A stretch of DNA of 64,000 bases from Leptogorgia sarmentosa (Eukaryota), in NCBI GenBank assembly GCA_964658305.1, contig OZ210884.1, positions 2,542,001 through 2,606,000 on the forward strand. The letters are read 5' to 3'. Position 1 is the first letter of the stretch, and the number at the start of each line of letters is the position of its first letter. The notes beneath the pieces are model-generated. The model searched no databases. It was not told the origin of the DNA and saw only the letters and a program-made list of their open reading frames with translations. Shown piece by piece: positions 53,185 through 64,000 of this stretch. Made by a program: the position numbers and the translations under genes.

Positions 53185-54963
53185 CATTTTTCACTTACTC
53201 TGAATTACTCTGAAACACTCTGAAGAACTCTGAACTACGAGCCAAAAATGGCCTAGCGATTTTTCACCTCCTCTGAATTAGTCTGAAACACTCTGAAAAA
53301 CTCTGAACTGCGAGCCAAAAACGGCCTAGCGATTTTTCACCTCCTCTGAATTTGTCTGAAACACTCTGAAGAACTCTGAACTACGAGCCAAAAACGGCCT
53401 AGCGATTTTTCACGTACCCTGAATTACTCTGAAACACTCTGAAGAACTCTGTACTACGAGCCAAAAACGGCCTAGTGATTTTTCACCTCCTCTGAATTAG
53501 TCTGAAACACTCTGAAGAACTCTGAACTACGAGCCAAAAACGGCCTAGCGATTTTTCACCTCCTCTGAATTAGTCTGAAACACTCTGAAGAACTCTGAAC
53601 TACGAGTCAAAAACGGCCTAGCGATTTTTCACGTACTCTGAATTACTCTGAAACACTCTGAAGAACTCTGAACTACTAGCCAAAAACGGCCTAGCGATTT
53701 TTCTCCTTCTCTGAATTACTCTGAAACACTCTGAAGAACTCTGAACTACGAGCCAAAAACGGCCTAGCGATTTTTCACCTCCTCTGAATTAGTCTGAAAC
53801 ACTCTGAAAAACTCTGAACTGCGAGCCAAAAACGGCCTAGCGATTTTTCACCTCGTCTGAATTTGTCTGAAACACTCTGAAGAACTCTGAACTACGAGCG
53901 AAAAAGGGCCTAGCGATTTTTCACTCACTCTCTATTACTCTGAAACACTCTGAAGAACTCTGTACCACGAGCCAAATACGGCCTAGCGGTTTTTCACGTA
54001 CTCTGAAACACTCTGAAGAAATCTGAACTACTTGCCAAAAATGGCCTAGCCATTTTTCACTTACTCTGAATTACTCTGAAACACTCTGAAGAACTCTGAA
54101 CTACGAGCCAAAAATGGCCTAGCGATTTTTCACCTCCTCTGAATTAGTCTGAAACACTCTGAAAAACTCTGAACTGCGAGCCAAAAACGGCCTAGCGATT
54201 TTTCACCTCCTCTGAATTTGTCTGAAACACCCTGAAGAACTCTGAACTACGAGCCAAAAACGGCCTAGCGATTTTTCACGTACCCTGAATTACTCTGAAA
54301 CACTCTGAAGAACTCTCAACTACTAGCCAAAAACGGCCTAGCGATTTTTCACTTACTCTCAATTATTATAAACACTCTGAAGAACTCTGAACTACGAGCC
54401 AAAAACGGCCTAGCGATTTTTCACCTCCTCTGAATTTGTCTGAAACAGTCTGAAGAACTCTGAACTACGAGCGAAAAACGGCCTAGCGATTTTTCTCCCC
54501 CTCTGAATTACTCTGAAACACTCTGAAGAACTCTGAACTACGAGCCAAAAACGGCCTAGCGATTTTTCACTTACTCTCAATCACCTGAAACACTCTGAAG
54601 AACTCTGTACCACGAGCCAAATACGGCCTAGCGGTTTTTCACGAACTCTGAAACACTCTGAAGAACTCTGAACTACTTGCCAAAAATGGCCTAGCGATTT
54701 TTCACTTACTCTGAATTACTCTGAAACACTCTGAAGAACTCTGAACTTCGAACCATAAATGGCCTAGCGATTTTTCACCTACTCTGAATTACTCTGCAAC
54801 ACTCTGAAGAACTCTGAACTACGAGCCAAAAACGGCCTAGCGATTTTTCACCTCCTCTGAATTACTCTGAAACACTCTGAAGAACTCTGAACTACGAGCC
54901 AAAAACGGCCTAACGATTTTGCACTTACTCTCAATTACCTGAAACACTCTGAAGAACTATGTA
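53185..54963 (+). repeat. 73-bp satellite, left arm (about 24 copies; orientation defined as GATTTTTCAC...CTCTGAA...GGCCTAGC)
   Basis: GATTTTTCAC at 53258 and 53331 gives a 73-bp unit with four internal 10-bp CTCTGAA(nnn) subrepeats. 63-bp variants lack one subrepeat. 53185 onward repeats at 54051 (866 bp = 11x73+63). Confidence 0.98.
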
Positions 54964-55125
54964 TGTGACGTTCGTTGATATTATGTTATACTTAAATGAA
55001 GTCGATCGCCTAGCGGTAGATAACTTCCGGCTCAAAGACGTAGCGAACACGTTGTTTTTCAAAAGGATAGAAACAGTCGAATTATTATTGTAGTAAAAGT
55101 ACTTTATATATCGTCAAAATCAGAA

Positions 55126-55217
55126 GTAAGTTTAGTAATATGTATTTGCAGTTTGTATCAGTAGTATGTATATTAGTTATAGCCTTTATTTACACGTTTT
55201 CCTTGTATTATTCTTAG
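55126..55217 (+). other. Putative 92-nt spliceosomal intron inside the LTR (alternative acceptor at 55242 gives 117 nt)
   Basis: Donor GAA|GTAAGT at 55126; AT-rich interior; pyrimidine-rich acceptor TTTTCCTTGTATTATTCTTAG| ending 55217; duplicated acceptor TATTATTTTTAG| ending 55242. Confidence 0.68.
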
Positions 55218-55252
55218 TTTTTACCGCTTGTATTATTTTTAGTTTTTGCTAA

Positions 55253-55258
55253 AATAAA
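55253..55258 (+). promoter_or_regulatory. Polyadenylation signal AATAAA in the LTR
   Basis: AATAAA about 90 bp before the LTR end, the usual position near the R/U5 boundary. Confidence 0.6.
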
Positions 55259-55344
55259 TTGGAGTGTGTTTGCACAACGCAGTGGTTAAATTCAAGCGAA
55301 CTTGACGCAGCAGCAACCTCTCGTGGTGTGTCGAGAACGCAACA

Positions 55345-55360
55345 GTAAAAATTCTGATTT
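55345..55360 (+). promoter_or_regulatory. Non-canonical primer-binding site GTAAAAATTCTGATTT (candidate self-priming site)
   Basis: Directly follows the LTR-terminal CA and lacks the TGG needed to pair with a tRNA CCA end. It is the exact reverse complement of 55117-55125 joined to 55218-55224. Confidence 0.65.
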
Positions 55361-56600
55361 CGCAGAATAAAGAAATCAAAGGTAAGCGAAAGTTTCGTAT
55401 TACACGAGTATGAGTATCAAAGGCGACAAGGACTCGTTTGAACCAAGTCAAACTATGGAGAATCAAAAGAGGATAATTACTCGGTCGAGTAAAGTCTTTC
55501 AAAACACTGTCAATGACAAAGTTGAGTTAGCTATATGCACCCGGAGCAATTTCATTACACTTATGAAGAAAGTCGAGGAATGTAACAACAACACTACTGA
55601 GAAACACATGGAGGAACTCATAAAAGTTACTAAGGAGTATGAACTCATAACTAATGAGCTTAAATGCCTGCTAGACCAGGACAAATATGGAGATTTCAGG
55701 GAGGAAGCTGATTGGCAAAAAAAGGAACAGACTATTAGCAAAGCACATAGCTTGATTAAGAATACCAAGACTGTGCAATCTGATAGACGCTCGCAGGCCC
55801 CCTCCTGGCGTTCAAGATCACACTCGCACCGCAGTCGTCGATCCTCTTCTTCAACGAGTAGCTATACTAGATTAAACGCTCTAGCAGAAGCCGCCGCAGC
55901 CAGAGAAAGCGCGGAGTACGAACGGGTGATGGCAGCAAAGGAGCATGATTGCCGTCAGCGAGAATTAGATCACGCAAAAGAAATGGCAGTATTGATCGCA
56001 GATAAAAAGGTAGCCATTGCCAATGCAAAACTGAAAGCCATCGAGGAGGCTTTGCAAGATCAGGAGCTAGGAGAGAGAGCCAGTCTTCCCGAAGTCCCAG
56101 AGGTAAGAGCCGAAGAAAGAACAGATGATTGGGTAAACTCGGTTGCTTCACAAGAAATTGTTGGTGAAAATCCCCACGTTTCCCCCCTTCCTACCACAAA
56201 TCTTGGGAATCCTATTTCAAACACAACTCCCTTTGAAAATCCCCACGTATCCCTAGGTCCCACTACAAACCTCAACGGCCCACCCCCATCAACAAGTTTT
56301 AGCTACAACCCCCATGTTTTCGATGGTCCATCTACAAATAGAGTTCCAGTGATAAGTGTAGGCAACAGCCCACTTCACATGACCAACCAAGTTCCTATCT
56401 CCCAAGCCTACCACAAGACTGCATCAGTAAACCTTAACAGTACAGTCCCACTATGGAGTGTGAACGGTCGCCCACATCAAATACCTAATGCGCAACACCC
56501 CACTCAATTCAGCCAAGTTGGAGATGCGACCGGAAGTCAACTTATAGAGTCGCTGACATCAGCCAATCAACAAGTGGTCGCTGGTTTAGCAAGGCAAAAC

Positions 56601-56963
56601 CTGCCGAAGTGTCATCCAGACATTTTTGGTGGTGATGCAACACTCTTTCATCCCTGGAAAAGAGCCTTCAAGGCTATGATCAAAGACACGTCTGTAACCT
56701 CTGAACAAGAGATTAATTATCTACGCAGTTTCACCCGTGGAGAAGTCCAGCGTGTTGTAGACAATTTCCGGAAACGCCATCAGAATGACCCCACAGCCCT
56801 TCTTCAGAACCTCTGGAAAGAACTAGAGACACGCTTCGGAAGTGCAGCTGTCATAACAAATGCCTTGCTGGAACGCCTACACAGCTTGTCGAACTTCCAA
56901 GAGAAAGACAACGCCAAACTCCAAGAGTTCGCTGACCTATGTGTGGATGTGAACAGCCAGATC
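56601..56963 (+). other. Gag core domain (DUF1759-like, BEL/Pao)
   Basis: LPKCHPDIFGGDATLFHPWKRAFKAMI...EINYLRSFTRGEVQRVV...LWKELETRFGS pattern. Confidence 0.8.
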
Positions 56964-57287
56964 TAAAATCAACCTGGATTGGCTTGTCTACACTACCCTG
57001 GAGCGATTCGCCCGATTGTCGCAAAATTACCAGCATCGATAAAAACGAAGTGGGAGAAGGAAGTCGTGAAACATGCTGAAACCCACAACGATGCATACCC
57101 AGGCTTTAGCGTTTTTACTCAAGTGGTAAAGACTCAAACAAAGATCAAGAACCATCCGAACATCCTTGCAGGCAACCTCCAGAAACTCCCTCTTGAAAGA
57201 TATAGAGAAAAACCCAGAGATCAAAGGGCTCTGCGAACGAGCTTAGATGGCGAAAGCAAGAACCCATCACAATCCGTCAAGAAGTGG

Positions 57288-57488
57288 TGCCCCTACCACA
57301 AATGTGATCGCCATGGACTAACTGAGTGCAAAGCATTCGAAACAAAAGCATTAAGCGAAAGAACGGAGTGGATACAGAAAGCAGGACTGTGTTTTCGATG
57401 CCTCAAAGAAGGACATCAAGCGAAGAAGTGCAAAGCCAAGATCAGCTGCTCCATTTGCGGACACGATCGTCACCTCGCATTGCTACAC
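57288..57488 (+). other. Three Gag zinc knuckles
   Basis: CPYHKCDRHGLTEC (Cx2Hx4Hx4C), CFRCLKEGHQAKKC (Cx2Cx4Hx4C) and CSICGHDRHLALLH (Cx2Cx4Hx4H), the triple arrangement characteristic of BEL/Pao Gag. Confidence 0.9.
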
Positions 57489-57609
57489 AAAGAAAAGGTG
57501 GGGAAAGAAAGTAAAGATGAGAATAAAGTAAACCCCGCTGATGGCGAGGAGAGTGCTTCCGAGCAGGTGACAAATAAATGTACAGCAGTATGTGGCGAAA
57601 GTAACGGTG

Positions 57610-58030
57610 GCATTTCTTGTAGTAAATTCTTGCTTGTTGACATTGTCAAACCAGACGCAACGAATGAATCCTGCCGTGTATATGCAATCATCGATGACCA
57701 GAGCAACAGTTCCCTCATCAGCAGCGAGCTAGCAGACATGCTTGGAGCAGAGGGTCCAAAGGAAAAATATTACTTATCGACATGCAGTGGTAGCAAGGAA
57801 ACTAAGTTTGGTCGAAGAGTCTCCGGATTGGTCATATGATCTGTTTCAAATGGTAGAGAAGTCCACCTGCCAACGCTTGTTGAATGTGATAACTTCCCTG
57901 ACGACAAGAGAGAGATACCCACCCCTGAAGTAGCTCAAAGGTTCCCTCATCTTCAAGAAATTGCTCGAGAGATTCCACCACTAGATGAAAGAGCAGGCGT
58001 GCATGTCCTTCTTGGCCGTGATGCACCTGA
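57610..58030 (+). other. Aspartic protease domain (Pao-type), interrupted by TGA at 57837
   Basis: VYAIIDDQSNSSLIS with the presumed catalytic Asp codon at 57693; C-terminal VLLGRD motif near 58005-58022. Confidence 0.8.
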
Positions 58031-58553
58031 GCTACTGAAATTCCGAGCATTCAAGAACGGAAAAAAGGGTGCCCTTGGGCACAAAAGCTGTTGTTGGGAT
58101 GGACTATTACCGGACAAATATGCTTAAATTTCTTGAACGGACCTGTCCACGTCGAAGCCCGAAAGACAAGCGTCATTCCAGATGGCACTGACGAAGCAGA
58201 AGTTCCTATCTCAGGAGGAGTAGATGGCTTGAAATATTACGTAGTTCCATGCCCGAATACATTGGAGATTACAGATGGCATCATAGGGAGTAACATATTT
58301 CGCTCAAGCCCGCTTGATAATGAAGTCAGTCTTTCCATTGAAGATCGGAAATTCCTTGAGATAATGGAGAAAAAGATCCACAGAAACGGCACTGGACACT
58401 GGGAAATGCCTTTACCATTTTGCCAAACAGACACTGTTCTGCCAAATAATCGCTCTCAAGCTGTCCATCGTCTCAACGGCCTGATCAAGACATTGAAGCG
58501 TAAGCCACAGATGGAGAAAGACTATTTGAAGTTTATGGAGTCAATGATAAGTA

Positions 58554-61500
58554 AGGCCATTTTTGGCAAGTAGTTCAGAGTTCTTCAGAGTGTTTCAGAG
58601 TACGTGAAAAACCGCTAGGCCGTATTTGGCTCGTGGTACAGAGTTCTTCAGAGTGTTTCAGAGTAATAGAGAGTGAGTGAAAAATCGCTAGGCCCTTTTT
58701 CGCTCGTAGTTTAGAGTTCTTCAGAGTGTTTCAGACAAATTCAGAGGAGGTGAAAAATCGCTAGGCCCTTTTTCGCTCGTAGTTTAGAGTTCTTCAGAGT
58801 GTTTCAGAGTAATTCAGGGGAGGTGAAAAATCGCTAAGCCGTTTTTGACTCGTAGTTCAGAGTTCTTCAGAGGGTTTCAGAGTAATTTAGTGGAGTAGAA
58901 AATTGGCTAGGCTGTTTTTGGCTCGAAGTACGTACAGAGTTCTTCAGAGTGTTTCAGAGTAATTGAGAGTAAGTGCAAAATCGCTAGGCCGTTTTTGGCT
59001 CGTAGTTCAGAGTTCTTCAGAGTGTTTCAGAGTAATTCAGAGGGGGAGAAAAATCGCTAGGCTGTTTTTGGCTCGTAGTACGTATACAGAGTTCTTCAGA
59101 GTGCTAATTCAGAGTAATTGAGAGTACGTGAAAATCGCTAGGCCGTTTTTGACTCGTAGTTCAGAGTTCTTCAGAGTGTTTCAGACTAATTCAGAGGAGG
59201 TGAAAAATCGCTAGGCCGTTTTTGGCTCGTAGTTCAGAGTTCTTCAGAGTGTTTATGAGTAATTGAGAGTAAGTGAAAAATCGCTAGGCCGTTTTTGGCT
59301 CGTAGTACAGAGTTCGTCAGAGTGTTTCAGAGTAATTCAGTGGAGTATAAAAATCGCTAGGCCGTTTTTGGCTCGTAGTTCAGAGTTCTTCAGAGTGTTT
59401 CAGAGTAATTCAGAGGAGGTGAAAAATCGCTAGGCCTTTTTTTGGCTCGTAGTTCACAGTTCTTCAGAGTGTTTCAGAGTAATTCAGAGGAGGTGAAAAA
59501 TCGCTAGGCCGTTTTTGGCTCGTAGTTCAGAGTTCTTCAGAGGGTTTCAGAGTAATTCAGTGGAGTAGAAAAATGGCTAGGCTGTTTTTGGCTCGAAGTA
59601 CGTACAGAGTTCTTCAGAGTGTTTCAGAGTTATTGAGAGTAAGTGCAAAATCGCTAGGCCGTTTTTGGCTCGTAGTTAAGAGTTCTTCAGAGTGTTTCAG
59701 AGTAATTCAGAGGGGAGAAAAATCGCTAGGCTGTTTTTGGCTCGTAGTTCAGAGTTCTTCAGAGGGTTTCAGAGTAATTCAGTGGAGTAGAAAAATGGCT
59801 AGGCTGTTTTTGGCTCGAAGTACGTACAGAGTTCTTCAGAGTGTTTCAGAGTAATTGAGAGTAAGTGCAAAATCGCTAGGCCGTTTTTGGCTCGTAGTTC
59901 AGAGTTCTTCAGAGTGTTTCAGAGTAATTCAGAGGGGAGAAAAATCGCTAGGCTGTTTTTGGCTCGTAGTTCAGAGTTCTTCAGAGTGTTTCAGAGTAAT
60001 TCAGAGGGGTAGAAAAATCGCTAGGCCGTTTTTGGCTCGTAGTTCAGAGTTCTTCAGAGTGTTTCAGAGTAATTCAGAGTAAGTGAAAAATCGCTAGGGC
60101 ATTTTTGGCTCGTAGTTCAGAGTTCTTCAGAGTGTTTCAGAGTAATTGAGAGTAAGTGAAAAACCGCTAGGCCGTTTTTGGCTCGTAGTTCAGAGTTCTT
60201 CAGAGTGTTTCAGAGTAATTCAGAGTACGTGAAAAATCGCTAGGCCGTTTTTGGGTCGCAGTTCAGAGTTCTTCAGAGTGTTTCAGAGTAATAGAGAGTG
60301 AGTGAAAAATCGCTAGGCCGTTTCTGGCTCGTAGTTCAGAGTTCTTCAGAGTGTTTCAGACTAATTCAAAGCAGGTGAAAAATCGCTAGGCCGTTTTTGG
60401 CTCGTAGTTCAGAGTTCTTCAGAGTATTTATGAGTAATTGAGAGTAAGTGAAAAATCGCTAGGCCGTTTTTGGCTCGTAGTTCAGAGTTCTTCAGAGCGT
60501 TTCAGAGTAATTCAGAGTAAGTGAAAAATCGCTTGGCCATTTTTGGCTAGTAGTTCAGAGTTCTTCAGAGTGTTTCAGAGTAATTCAGAGGAGGAGGAAA
60601 ATCGCTAGGCCGTTTTTGGCTCGTAGTTCAGAGTTCTTCAGAGTATTTCAGAGTAATTCAAAGGAGTTGAAAAATGGCTAGGCCGTTTTTGGCTCGTAGT
60701 TCAGAGTTCTTCAGAGTGTTTCAGAGTTATTCAGAGGAGGAGAAAAATCGCTAGACCATTTTTGGCTCGTAGTTCAGAGTTCTTCAGAGTGTTTCAGAGT
60801 AATTCAGAGGAGGTGAAAAATTGCTAGGCCATTTTTGGCTAGTAGTTCAGAGTTCTTCAGAGTGTTTCAGAGTAATTCAGAGTACGTGAAAAACCGCTAG
60901 GCCGTATTTGGCTCGTGGTACAGAGTTCTTCAGAGTGTTCCAGGTGATTGAGAGTAAGTGAAAAATCGCTAGGCAGTTTTTGGCTCGTAGTTCAGAGATC
61001 TTCAGAGTGTTTCAGAGTAATTCAGAGGAGGTGAAAAATCGCTAGCCCGTTTTTGGCTCGTAGTTCAGAGTTCTTCAGAGTGTTTCAGATTAAATCAGAG
61101 GAGGTGAAAAATCGCTAGGCCGTTTTTGGCTCGTAGTTCAGAGTTCTTCAGAGTGTTTCAGAGTATTTCAGAGTAAGTGAAAAATCGCTAGGCCTTTTTT
61201 GGCTCGTAGTACGTACAGAGTTCTTCAGAGTGTTTCAGGGTAATTCAGAGGAGGTGAAAAATTGCTAGGCCGTTTTTGGCTCGTAGTTCAGAGTTCTTCA
61301 GAGTGTTTCAGAGTAATTCAGTGGAGTAGAAAAATCGCTAGGCTGTTTTTGGCTTGTAGTACGTACAGAGTTCTTCAGAGCGTTTCAGGTAATTGAGAGT
61401 AAGTGCAAAATCGCTAGGCCGTTTTTGGCTCGTAGTTCAGAGTTCTTCAGAGTGTTTCAGAGTAATTCAGAGTAAGTGAAATATCGCTAGGCCATTTTTG

Positions 61501-64000
61501 GCTAGTAGTTCAGAGTTCTTCAGAATGTTTCAGAGTAATTCAGAGTACGTGAAAAACCGCTAGGCCGTTTTTGGCTAATAGTTCAGAGTTCTTCAGAGTG
61601 TTTCAGAGTAATTCAGAGTACGTGAAAAACCGCTAGGCTGTATTTGGCTCGTGGTACAGAGTTCTTCAGAGTGTTCCAGGTGATTGAGAGTAAGTGAAAA
61701 ATCGCTAGGCAGTTTTTGGCTCGTAGTTCAGAGATCTTCAGAGTGTTTCAGAGTAATTCAGAGGAGGTGAAAAATCGCTAGCCCGTTTTTGGCTCGTAGT
61801 TCAGAGTTCTTCAGAGTGTTTCAGATTAAATCAGAGGAGGTGAAAAATCGCTAGGCCGTTTTTGGCTCGTAGTTCAGAGTTCTTCAGAGTGTTTCAGAGT
61901 ATTTCAGAGTAAGTGAAAAATCGCTAGCCCTTTTTTGGCTCGTAGTACGTACAGAGTTCTTCAGAGTGTTTCAGGTAATTGAGAGTAAGTGAAAAATCGC
62001 TAGGCCGTTTTTGGCTCGTAGTTCAGAGTTCTTCAGAGTGTTTCAGAGTAATTCAGAATACGTAAAAACCGCTAGGCCGTTTTTGGCGCTTAGTACGTAC
62101 AGAGTTCTTCAGAGTGTTTCAGGTAATTGAGAGTAAGTGAAAAATCGCTAGGCCGTTTTTGGCTCGTTGTTCAGAGTTCTTCAGAGTGTTTCAGAGTAAT
62201 TCAGAGGAGGTGAAAAATCGCTAGCCCGTTTTTGGCTCGTAGTTCAGAGTTCTTCAGAGTGTTTCAGATTAAATCAGAGGAGGTGAAAAATCGCTAGGCC
62301 GTTTTTGGCTCGTAGTTCAGAGTTCTTCAGAGTGTTTCAGAGTATTTCAGAGTAAGTGAAAAATCGCTAGGCCTTTTTTGGCTCGTAGTACGTACAGAGT
62401 TCTTCAGAGTGTTTCAGGGTAATTCAGAGGAGGTGAAAAATTGCTAGGTCGTTTTTGGCTCGTAGTTCAGAGTTCTTCAGAGTGTTTCAGAGTAATTCAG
62501 TGGAGCAGAAAAATCGCTAGGCTGTTTTTGGCTTGTAGTACGTACAGAGTTCTTCAGAGTGTTTCAGAGTATTTCAGAGTAAGTGAAAAATCGCTAGGCC
62601 TTTTTTGGCTCGTAGTACGTACAGAGTTCTTCAGAGTGTTTCAGGTAATTGAGAGTAAGTGAAAAATCGCTAGGCCGTTTTTGGCTCGTAGTTCAGAGTT
62701 CTTCAGAGTGTTTCAGAGTAATTCAGAGTACGTAAAAACCGCTAGGCCGTTTTTCGCGCTTAGTACGTACAGAGTTCTTCAGAGTGTTTCAGGTAATTGA
62801 GAGTAAGTGAAAAATCGCTAGGCCGTTTTTGGCTCGTAGTTCAGAGTTCTTCAGAGTGTTTCAGAGTAATTCAGAGTAAGTGAAATATCGCTAGGCCATT
62901 TTTGGCTAGTAGTTCAGAGTTCTTCAGAATGTTTCAGAGTAATTCAGAGTACGTGAAAAACCGCTAGGCCGTTTTTGGCTAATAGTTCAGAGTTCTTCAG
63001 AGTGTTTCAGAGTAATTCAGAGTACGTGAAAAACCGCTAGGCCGTATTTGGCTCGTGGTACAGAGTTCTTCAGAGTGTTCCAGGTGATTGAGAGTAAGTG
63101 AAAAATCGCTAGGCAGTTTTTGGCTCGTAGTTCAGAGATCTTCAGAGTGTTTCAGAGTAATTCAGAGGAGGTGAAAAATCGCTAGCCCGTTTTTGGCTCG
63201 TAGTTCAGAGTTCTTCAGAGTGTTTCAGATTAAATCAGAGGAGGTGAAAAATCGCTAGGCCGTTTTTGGCTCGTAGTTCAGAGTTCTTCAGAGTGTTTCA
63301 GAGTATTTCAGAGTAAGTGAAAAATCGCTAGGCCTTTTTTGGCTCGTAGTACGTACAGAGTTCTTCAGAGTGTTTCAGGTAATTGAGAGTAAGTGAAAAA
63401 TCGCTAGGCCGTTTTTGGCTCGTAGTTCAGAGTTCTTCAGAGTGTTTCAGAGTAATTCAGAGTACGTAAAAACCGCTAGGCCGTTTTTCGCGCTTAGTAC
63501 GTACAGAGTTCTTCAGAGTGTTTCAGGTAATTGAGAGTAAGTGAAAAATCGCTAGGCCGTTTTTGGCTCGTTGTTCAGAGTTCTTCAGAGTGTTTCAGAG
63601 TAATTCAGAGGAGGTGAAAAATCGCTAGGCCATTTTTGGCTCGTAGTTCAGAGTTCTTCACAGTGTTTCAGAGTAATACAGAGGGGGAGAAAAATCGCTA
63701 GACCGTTTTTGGCTCGTAGTTCAGAGTTCTTCAGAGTGTTTCAGAGTATTTCAGAGTAAGTGAAAAATCGCTAGGTCTTTTTTGGCTCGTAGTACGTACA
63801 GAGTTCTTCAGAGTGTTTCAGGTAATTGAGAGTAAGTGAAAAATCGCTAGGCCGTTTTTGGCTCGTGGTTCAGAGTTCTTCAGAGTGTTTCAGAGTAATT
63901 CAGAGGGGGAGAAAAATCGCTAGGCCGTTTTTGGCTCGTAGTTCAGAGTTCTTCAGAGTGTTTCAGACTAATTCAGAGGAGGTGAAAATTCGCTAGGCCG
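58554..64000 (-). repeat. 73-bp satellite, right arm, inverted relative to the left arm (about 74 copies; runs off the window end)
   Basis: The unit GTGAAAAATCGCTAGGCCGTTTTTGGCTCGTAGTTCAGAGTTCTTCAGAGTGTTTCAGAGTAATTCAGAG... is the reverse complement of the left-arm unit. Length variants of +4 (GTACGTAC), -2 and -10 occur. Confidence 0.98.

Follow-up and report, generated by a model that had tools for sequence, protein, structure and literature searches.

A candidate splice-assembled self-primer in a marine-animal lineage of BEL/Pao-type retrotransposons

Background

What primes reverse transcription in a retrotransposon whose primer-binding site (PBS) directly adjoins the LTR end at 55344, begins with GTAAAAA and contains no TGG? 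The element that raises this question lies in a 64-kb window (the whole stretch of DNA analysed here), and an earlier note on this DNA had proposed splicing-dependent self-priming, i.e. that the PBS is complementary to an exon-exon junction within the element's own LTR. Here, we weigh this reading against its alternatives by using the window, a set of related elements and the published descriptions of LTR-retrotransposon priming.

Results

A truncated element in a satellite array

The window is made up of satellite DNA, with one unique stretch (~3.6 kb) positioned exactly where the 73-bp array flips orientation (Table 1). This unique stretch is the 5' part of an LTR retrotransposon, and with its 3' part absent (the RNase H region included), two in-frame stops, one frame break and a truncation at 58556, the window copy is a dead element. 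The flip of the array together with the missing 3' part suggests an inversion or deletion breakpoint. Because seven of the 20 listed sequencing runs hold at least half of the sampled element words, the family itself is multi-copy or recently active; a scan of viral contigs for relatives of the element returned none.

Table 1. Positions of the satellites, element parts and predicted priming features in the window
Feature	Position	Strand	Remarks
208-bp satellite	1-53188		
73-bp satellite	53186-54958 and 58553-64000		
5' LTR, 381 nt, TGT...ACA	54964..55344	+	run X4 contig at ~2x internal depth
Exon 1 end, 5' half (9 nt) of predicted self-primer, AAATCAGAA	55117..55125	+	complements PBS nt 8-16
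Predicted spliceosomal intron, 92 nt, GTAAGT donor at 55126, TAG acceptor ending 55217	55126..55217	+	from sequence signals
Exon 2 start, 3' half (7 nt) of predicted primer, TTTTTAC	55218..55224	+	complements PBS nt 1-7; predicted cut after 55224
Predicted poly(A) signal, AATAAA	55253..55258	+	35 nt past acceptor
PBS without TGG, adjoining LTR end	55345..55360	+	
Second donor-like site, AAG/GTAAGC, outside LTR	55382..55387	+	38 nt after LTR end; putative function
gag N-terminal part, DUF1759 capsid-type domain, ends at in-frame stop	55410..56966	+	PF03564, E 8.9e-09
Continuation: three Cys/His fingers and protease-type motif IIDDQSNS, in-frame stop at end	56967..57839	+	
Broken start of pol, followed by 73-bp satellite in opposite orientation	57840..58556	+	

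The nearest protein relative (P0001) is 73% identical to the product of 56967..57839 and carries PF05380 (Peptidase_A17, Pao peptidase) as well as PF03564, while another (P0026) has PF05380 followed by rve and DUF5641; the named protein relatives are mostly anthozoan, which makes an anthozoan host probable. Across 46 aligned proteins the Cys/His residues of the three fingers are invariant (in the first, a His replaces the second Cys), and a triple Cys-His box combined with a BEL/Pao-type Gag is, according to the accessible text of the Sinbad paper, a hallmark of BEL/Pao (PMC554778). The protease-type motif at 57690-57715 reads IIDDQSNS, with D, Q, S and N invariant in the same 46 proteins, and is unlike the LLDXG that this text gives for Pao-like elements. 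The assignment to BEL/Pao made in the earlier note stands as far as the proteins are concerned (DUF1759, fingers), whereas a canonical tRNA-type PBS is lacking.

The PBS complements a predicted splice junction

The LTR end at 55344 was fixed without recourse to the pairing. A 381-nt contig of run X4 lies on 54964-55345 at a depth of 37 (vs 19-23 for the internal region), and in run X6 a 6855-nt contig passes through a single collapsed LTR. When 55125 and 55218 are joined in silico, the product is a 16/16 complement to the PBS, with pairing failing at nucleotide 17, while the longest contiguous complement in the unspliced LTR is 7 nt. The acceptor TAG is preceded by 16 pyrimidines in 20 nt. On the window sequence we could thus confirm what the earlier note had reported, namely the coordinates of both halves, of the GTAAGT donor, the TAG acceptor and the PBS, and the dependence of the full complement on the 55125/55218 junction; its placement of the LTR end at 55344 agrees with the run X4 depth and the TGT...ACA termini.

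As a chance test, we used dinucleotide shuffles of the LTR (n=2000) and permitted any GT/GC..AG intron; none reached 16 nt (mean 6.1, maximum 11). When the start was shifted over 121 positions around the LTR end, scores of at least 10 were confined to offset 0 and the offsets 1-4 nested in it. In the seven runs that cover the LTR, none of the differences listed falls in 55117-55130, 55215-55226 or 55345-55359, which is a weak negative. Eight runs were compared as contigs, of which seven cover the element; none is recorded as RNA, and a 55125/55218 joint was not among the entries listed, which speaks neither for nor against splicing.

Just past the predicted cut, 55227-55243 (+) is a near-duplicate of the acceptor region that differs from the copies in the sequencing runs and possibly reflects a template switch or conversion. 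With the second TAG, at 55242, as acceptor, 14 nt match, two bases out of register. The window also has a TATA-like run at 55103-55111, which is not common to the relatives; if used, it would place the start inside the intron and so counts against the self-primer reading.

The match recurs at the LTR end of related families

A protein alignment led to 87 loci, which fell into 27 clusters at 85% identity, and two further elements (L114, L115) were taken from other genomes. We used the 14 clusters that have the junction region and the PBS on one contig and left out 13 (no LTR, or one side only). Among the latter, L046 has the acceptor and an exon-2 match of 8/8, and L087 has the acceptor, its PBS being cut after two bases. 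The last base of the L054 contig coincides with the predicted exon-1 end (L054:6563-6569, a 7/7 complement to PBS nt 8-14), and the contig of L033 begins (L033:1) exactly at the predicted cut site; these contig ends may be assembly branches or chance.

The resulting test set comprised 20 LTR-PBS pairs in 16 groups (14 clusters, L114 and the window; one to three pairs per group). A perfect match of 10-17 nt across an intron was found in 17 of the 20 pairs and 13 of the 16 groups, always starting at PBS nucleotide 1, and GT are the first bases of all 20 PBSs. The contiguous complement in the unspliced sequence is 5-9 nt in 19 pairs; the exception is L025, in which 15 nt are present ready-joined, in the same register and without a donor. 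At most 6 of 2000 shuffles reached the observed match in 17 of the 20 pairs. The match of L086 (11 nt) was reached by 43/2000 and passes only with a 697-nt intron, beyond the preset limit; neither L026 (6 nt only, with mismatches and a GC donor) nor L068 (7 nt, with a one-base bulge) is significant. In L019/L020 a change in the PBS cuts the match from 15 to 12, and just 3 exon-1 bases are perfectly paired in L034, L036, L081 and L086. The self-match of L115, a distant TGG-type element, is at most 6 nt.

Each PBS fits its own LTR (12.25 nt on average) better than other LTRs (5.4), and the summed own score of 245 compares with a maximum of 180 in 200,000 permutations, a contrast in which independence is overstated, as the families are related. 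In a blind scan of the 1.8 kb upstream of each gene, to which the LTR end was not supplied, the best match fell at the LTR end in most loci having both the junction region and the PBS. In L013 (12 nt), L081 (11) and L085 (14), the LTR end is given by two LTR copies and the PBS starts there; L081 and L085 also have matching 5-bp target-site duplications. Most other LTR ends were set by a terminal motif written after the first matches, and the two-LTR loci back several families. Two LTRs, a purine tract and 5-bp target duplications are seen among the relatives; the window has one 381-nt LTR. A 346-nt direct repeat in L012, considered as an LTR, was rejected as coding sequence.

It could be argued that the window match is a coincidence in an A/T-rich LTR, considering that the LTR strand is T-rich and that the intron was picked after the PBS was known. 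The shuffles of the window and of the other pairs, as well as the same register in distant families, leave this explanation a practically negligible probability.

Two side observations concern individual relatives. L026 and L067 have a GC-AG type donor (GCAAGT), and the junction of L026, which pairs imperfectly with its own PBS, complements that of the sister family L009 at 15/15. L085:5461-12366 (G003:C2) is a complete element with TA...AA rather than TG...CA ends, LTRs that are 99% identical and a 5-bp target duplication; it lies near the end of a 1.4-Mb contig that is filed as bacterial and has many tRNA genes, probably host DNA joined in assembly.

Both exon flanks covary with the PBS

More informative than this contrast are the compensatory changes. 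In the 14 tabulated junctions, the pair types are C:G (8), T:A (5) and A:T (1) at exon-1 position -1, A:T (12) and G:C (2) at position -2, and G:C (8), A:T (5) and T:A (1) at position -3, and three exon-2 positions show two pair types each. The exon-2 part is 5, 7, 8 or 9 nt long, with the PBS run tracking its length, and ends with AC in all 14. In the comparison that the earlier note had called for, the PBS therefore covaries with both exon flanks from one related family to the next, with the register unchanged and the LTR end as its fixed position. Two sources could produce this covariation: the helix may be under selection, or the primer may be copied directly into the PBS (in Tf1, about half of the cDNA retains a copy of the PBS at the 3' end, according to the accessible part of PMC11042837). 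With either source, a change at the last exon-1 base would not reappear in the PBS unless the spliced junction paired at that base. By eye, no conserved extension of the helix beyond the cut site was found.

The donors of 18 junction sets are GTRAGT (16), GTAGGT (1) and GCAAGT (1), and the acceptors are all YAG, following 12-16 pyrimidines in 20 nt. The introns measure 76-399 nt (697 in L086), with a median interior identity of 49%, and an A[AT]TAAA stands 26-75 nt past the acceptor in 18/18 sets. A donor-like GAG/GTAAGCCG is conserved 27-50 nt behind the LTR end in 12/18 sets (missing in 6/18), and the intron-less L025 has no second donor-like site. The role of this second donor could lie in the definition of exon 2 or in silencing the 5' poly(A) site, as the major donor of HIV-1 does in that virus.

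In L005, L009, L018, L052, L056 and L025 the paired exon-1 piece stands directly after an AG, which could hint at a start site or a micro-exon. A three-exon arrangement, considered for the AG directly before the exon-1 piece (5/13), was rejected, as no upstream donor lengthens the pairing.

An intron-less family nested among intron-bearing ones

When the TGG-type L115 is taken as the outgroup in quick trees (SH-aLRT support only, fetched loci only), L114, which bears an intron, is the first to branch off, and L025 is placed within a clade of 20 rows (support 98) whose families mostly have the intron; the root is one very long branch (L115), and the unrooted tree agrees. Since L025 is nested among intron-bearing families, holds its 15 nt joined in the same register and has no donor, the simplest reading is that it would have lost the intron precisely, through spliced RNA. 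Intron-less junctions of the 18 junction sets, sought in all loci with at most 4 mismatches in 28 nt, were not found, nor was an intron-less copy of an intron-bearing family among the loci. Judged by these comparisons, the junction-PBS feature is both real and lineage-wide.

Does the pairing require splicing?

The duplex energy is lower for the spliced than for the unspliced form in 18/18 cases (mean -18.8 vs -8.2 kcal/mol; -17.9 vs -7.6 kcal/mol in the window), and folding models give the window helix a probability of 0.99 when spliced and 0.11-0.15 when unspliced. For L114 the helix is not predicted even after splicing (0.00-0.01). These data bear on the idea that no splicing takes place and that both halves, which are after all present in the unspliced RNA, pair with the PBS while the intervening segment is looped out. 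L081, whose exon-2 helix is predicted without splicing (0.77-0.79), would fit such an arrangement. We nevertheless regard it as very unlikely, given that consensus donors and acceptors stand exactly at the break in 18/18 junction sets whose intervening segments vary in length and interior, and that in 12 of the 13 modelled cases the helix reaches a probability of no more than 0.27 without splicing.

Discussion

A primer probably assembled by the spliceosome

We consider it highly probable, on the strength of the compared sequences, that this lineage self-primes reverse transcription in a Tf1-like manner, with a primer assembled by the host spliceosome. Tf1-like priming suggests itself because the last pair of the helix falls on the base that adjoins the LTR, the position at which a primer for the minus strand has to end. 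On this reading, transcription would start upstream of 55117, the 92-nt intron would be spliced from the 5' LTR copy, and the spliced junction would fold back on the PBS over 16 bp. A cut after 55224, by analogy with the RNase H cleavage of Tf1, would provide the 3'-OH, from which minus strong-stop DNA would copy U5 and R back to 55225 and then jump to the 3' R by means of the ~50 nt that lie in the window between the predicted cut and the predicted poly(A) site. The intron would be inherited by copying from the 3' LTR, which must often remain unspliced; where the 3' copy is also spliced, an intron-less LTR such as that of L025 would result. One may speculate that the asymmetry arises from the second donor at 55382, which as an exon-defining signal would exist only behind the 5' LTR. 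As far as a comparison of DNA can speak to it, the splicing-dependent self-priming of the earlier note is supported.

Covariation shows pairing and not its function, and the junction-PBS helix might instead serve packaging, export or translation control, with another RNA acting as the primer. We hold this to be unlikely, as every one of the 17 spliced matches, and L025 too, has its helix end at the base adjoining the LTR, and no tRNA-type site is evident: only 3 of the 20 PBSs have a TGG within their first 8 nt, and the bases that follow it differ among the three and track the element's own junction.

The most concrete rival primer is the 5' half of the host tRNA-Lys(UUU), cut in the anticodon loop, the self-match then being secondary. 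Half-tRNA priming is known from some copia lineages, and half-tRNA primers are described for Osser, Bryco and Bianca in the accessible text of PMC6317226. Compared by eye with the human tRNA only (that of the host may differ), the tRNA-Lys(TTT) anticodon arm is identical to the L018 junction over 11 contiguous nt and would pair with PBS nt 4-14, and the window PBS fits 10 of these 11. On the other hand, no more than 6 nt fit in L005, L025, L052, L081, L085, L086 and L114, whose own junctions give 11-17 nt; PBS nt 1-3, always covered by the junction, are never covered by the tRNA; and tRNA-like PBSs are confined to a nested subclade. A tRNA-Lys half as the primer therefore has only a very slight probability. 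The identity in L018 may itself be a convergent back-up primer or chance. The Rfam search of 54940-55460 returned no tRNA, snRNA or ribozyme (the lone match, rli45, scored 22 against a cut-off of 60 bits), and a host small RNA that matches the PBS better than the junction, which the earlier note had named as a competing source, did not turn up among those compared (Rfam; human tRNA-Lys).

Splicing might also supply the primer at its first step: the freed first exon would pair with PBS nt 8-16, and its own 3'-OH at 55125 would make an RNase H cut unnecessary. Spliceosomal 3'-end formation is familiar from the telomerase RNA of fission yeast, and exon 1 alone reaches -9.2 kcal/mol in the window. 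Such a course is extremely unlikely in our view: it offers no account of the exon-2 match or of the way in which the length of that match covaries, exon 1 gives only 3-4 perfect pairs in five LTR-PBS pairs, and L025 keeps the match without a donor.

Significance

Splicing normally takes retroelement RNA out of the replicating pool. If the proposed mechanism is true, splicing would here be required to make the primer, the tRNA priming stated for Belpaoviridae would be overturned for a part of the family, and self-priming would extend to a third LTR superfamily. Hosts and elements would gain a control point over transposition through splicing state, tissue and stress, the element would be freed from the tRNA supply and from targeting by tRNA fragments, and an explanation would be at hand for elements in which pipelines find no PBS. 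It would also raise the question of how one RNA splices the intron in one LTR copy and retains an identical intron in the other. The predictions are base-precise and cheap to test on natural RNA.

Comparison with known systems

The searched literature, whose coverage left out most subscription journals and Repbase reports, yielded no description of a splice-built primer in LTR retrotransposons. Canonical introns inside LTRs are reported from maize, where they are spliced in long reads and their significance is called unclear in the available text (bioRxiv 10.64898/2026.05.08.723830); they average 1303 bp, as opposed to the predicted 92 nt in the window, belong mostly to non-coding LTR transcripts and are not linked to priming in the available text; the term PBS is absent from the main text.

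Belpaoviridae are described as primed by tRNA-Arg or tRNA-Gly, whose 3' end pairs with an 18-nt PBS, and their replication as poorly understood (PMC8742986). With this family (BEL/Pao, Semotivirus) the window element shares the DUF1759 gag and the three Cys/His fingers, while its lineage lacks a tRNA-Arg or tRNA-Gly site. BEL/Pao elements have a pol in which the integrase comes last, LTRs of 0.2-1.2 kb around their genes and a polypurine tract ahead of the 3' LTR; of these traits the truncated window copy shows a single LTR of 381 nt, and Peptidase_A17 is seen in its nearest relative. Because its PBS is not of the kind given in the ICTV profile, we file it as BEL/Pao-type by proteins and not as a canonical member. 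The main text of a large BEL/Pao survey is silent on primer, PBS, tRNA and intron (PMC3118150), and the accessible text of the Sinbad paper makes no mention of a PBS or tRNA (PMC554778).

In Tf1, according to the accessible text of the sources, the first 11 bases pair with the PBS and cleavage by RNase H separates base 11 from base 12 (PMC7175516, PMC4600332); self-priming is described for the Tf1/sushi group and predicted for the plant elements Tcn1 and TAR, likewise in the accessible text (PMC6317226, PMC4600332, PMC3601003). The window element is like Tf1/Tf2/Tj1 and Tf1/sushi in using no tRNA in the proposed scheme, in having a PBS that adjoins the LTR and is complementary to its own LTR-derived RNA, and in needing a cut to free the 3' end of the primer. 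The adjoining PBS that marks this group pairs over at least 11 nt with element RNA; in the window the pairing is 16 nt after in-silico splicing, at offset 0. Nevertheless, Tf1/sushi elements have Ty3/gypsy (chromovirus-related) proteins where the window element has BEL/Pao-type domains, and their PBS complement is contiguous in the LTR, whereas that of the window (7 nt when contiguous) is spread across an intron and only L025 has it contiguous (15 nt). The window element would consequently work like Tf1 in its self-priming without being a member of the Tf1/sushi group. We think it likely that a broad marine-animal BEL/Pao lineage has a primer that exists only after two LTR pieces are spliced, keeps its intron by splicing the 5' and not the 3' LTR copy, and has its reverse transcription gated by splicing, which would make it a third mode of starting reverse transcription, next to tRNA priming and contiguous self-priming.
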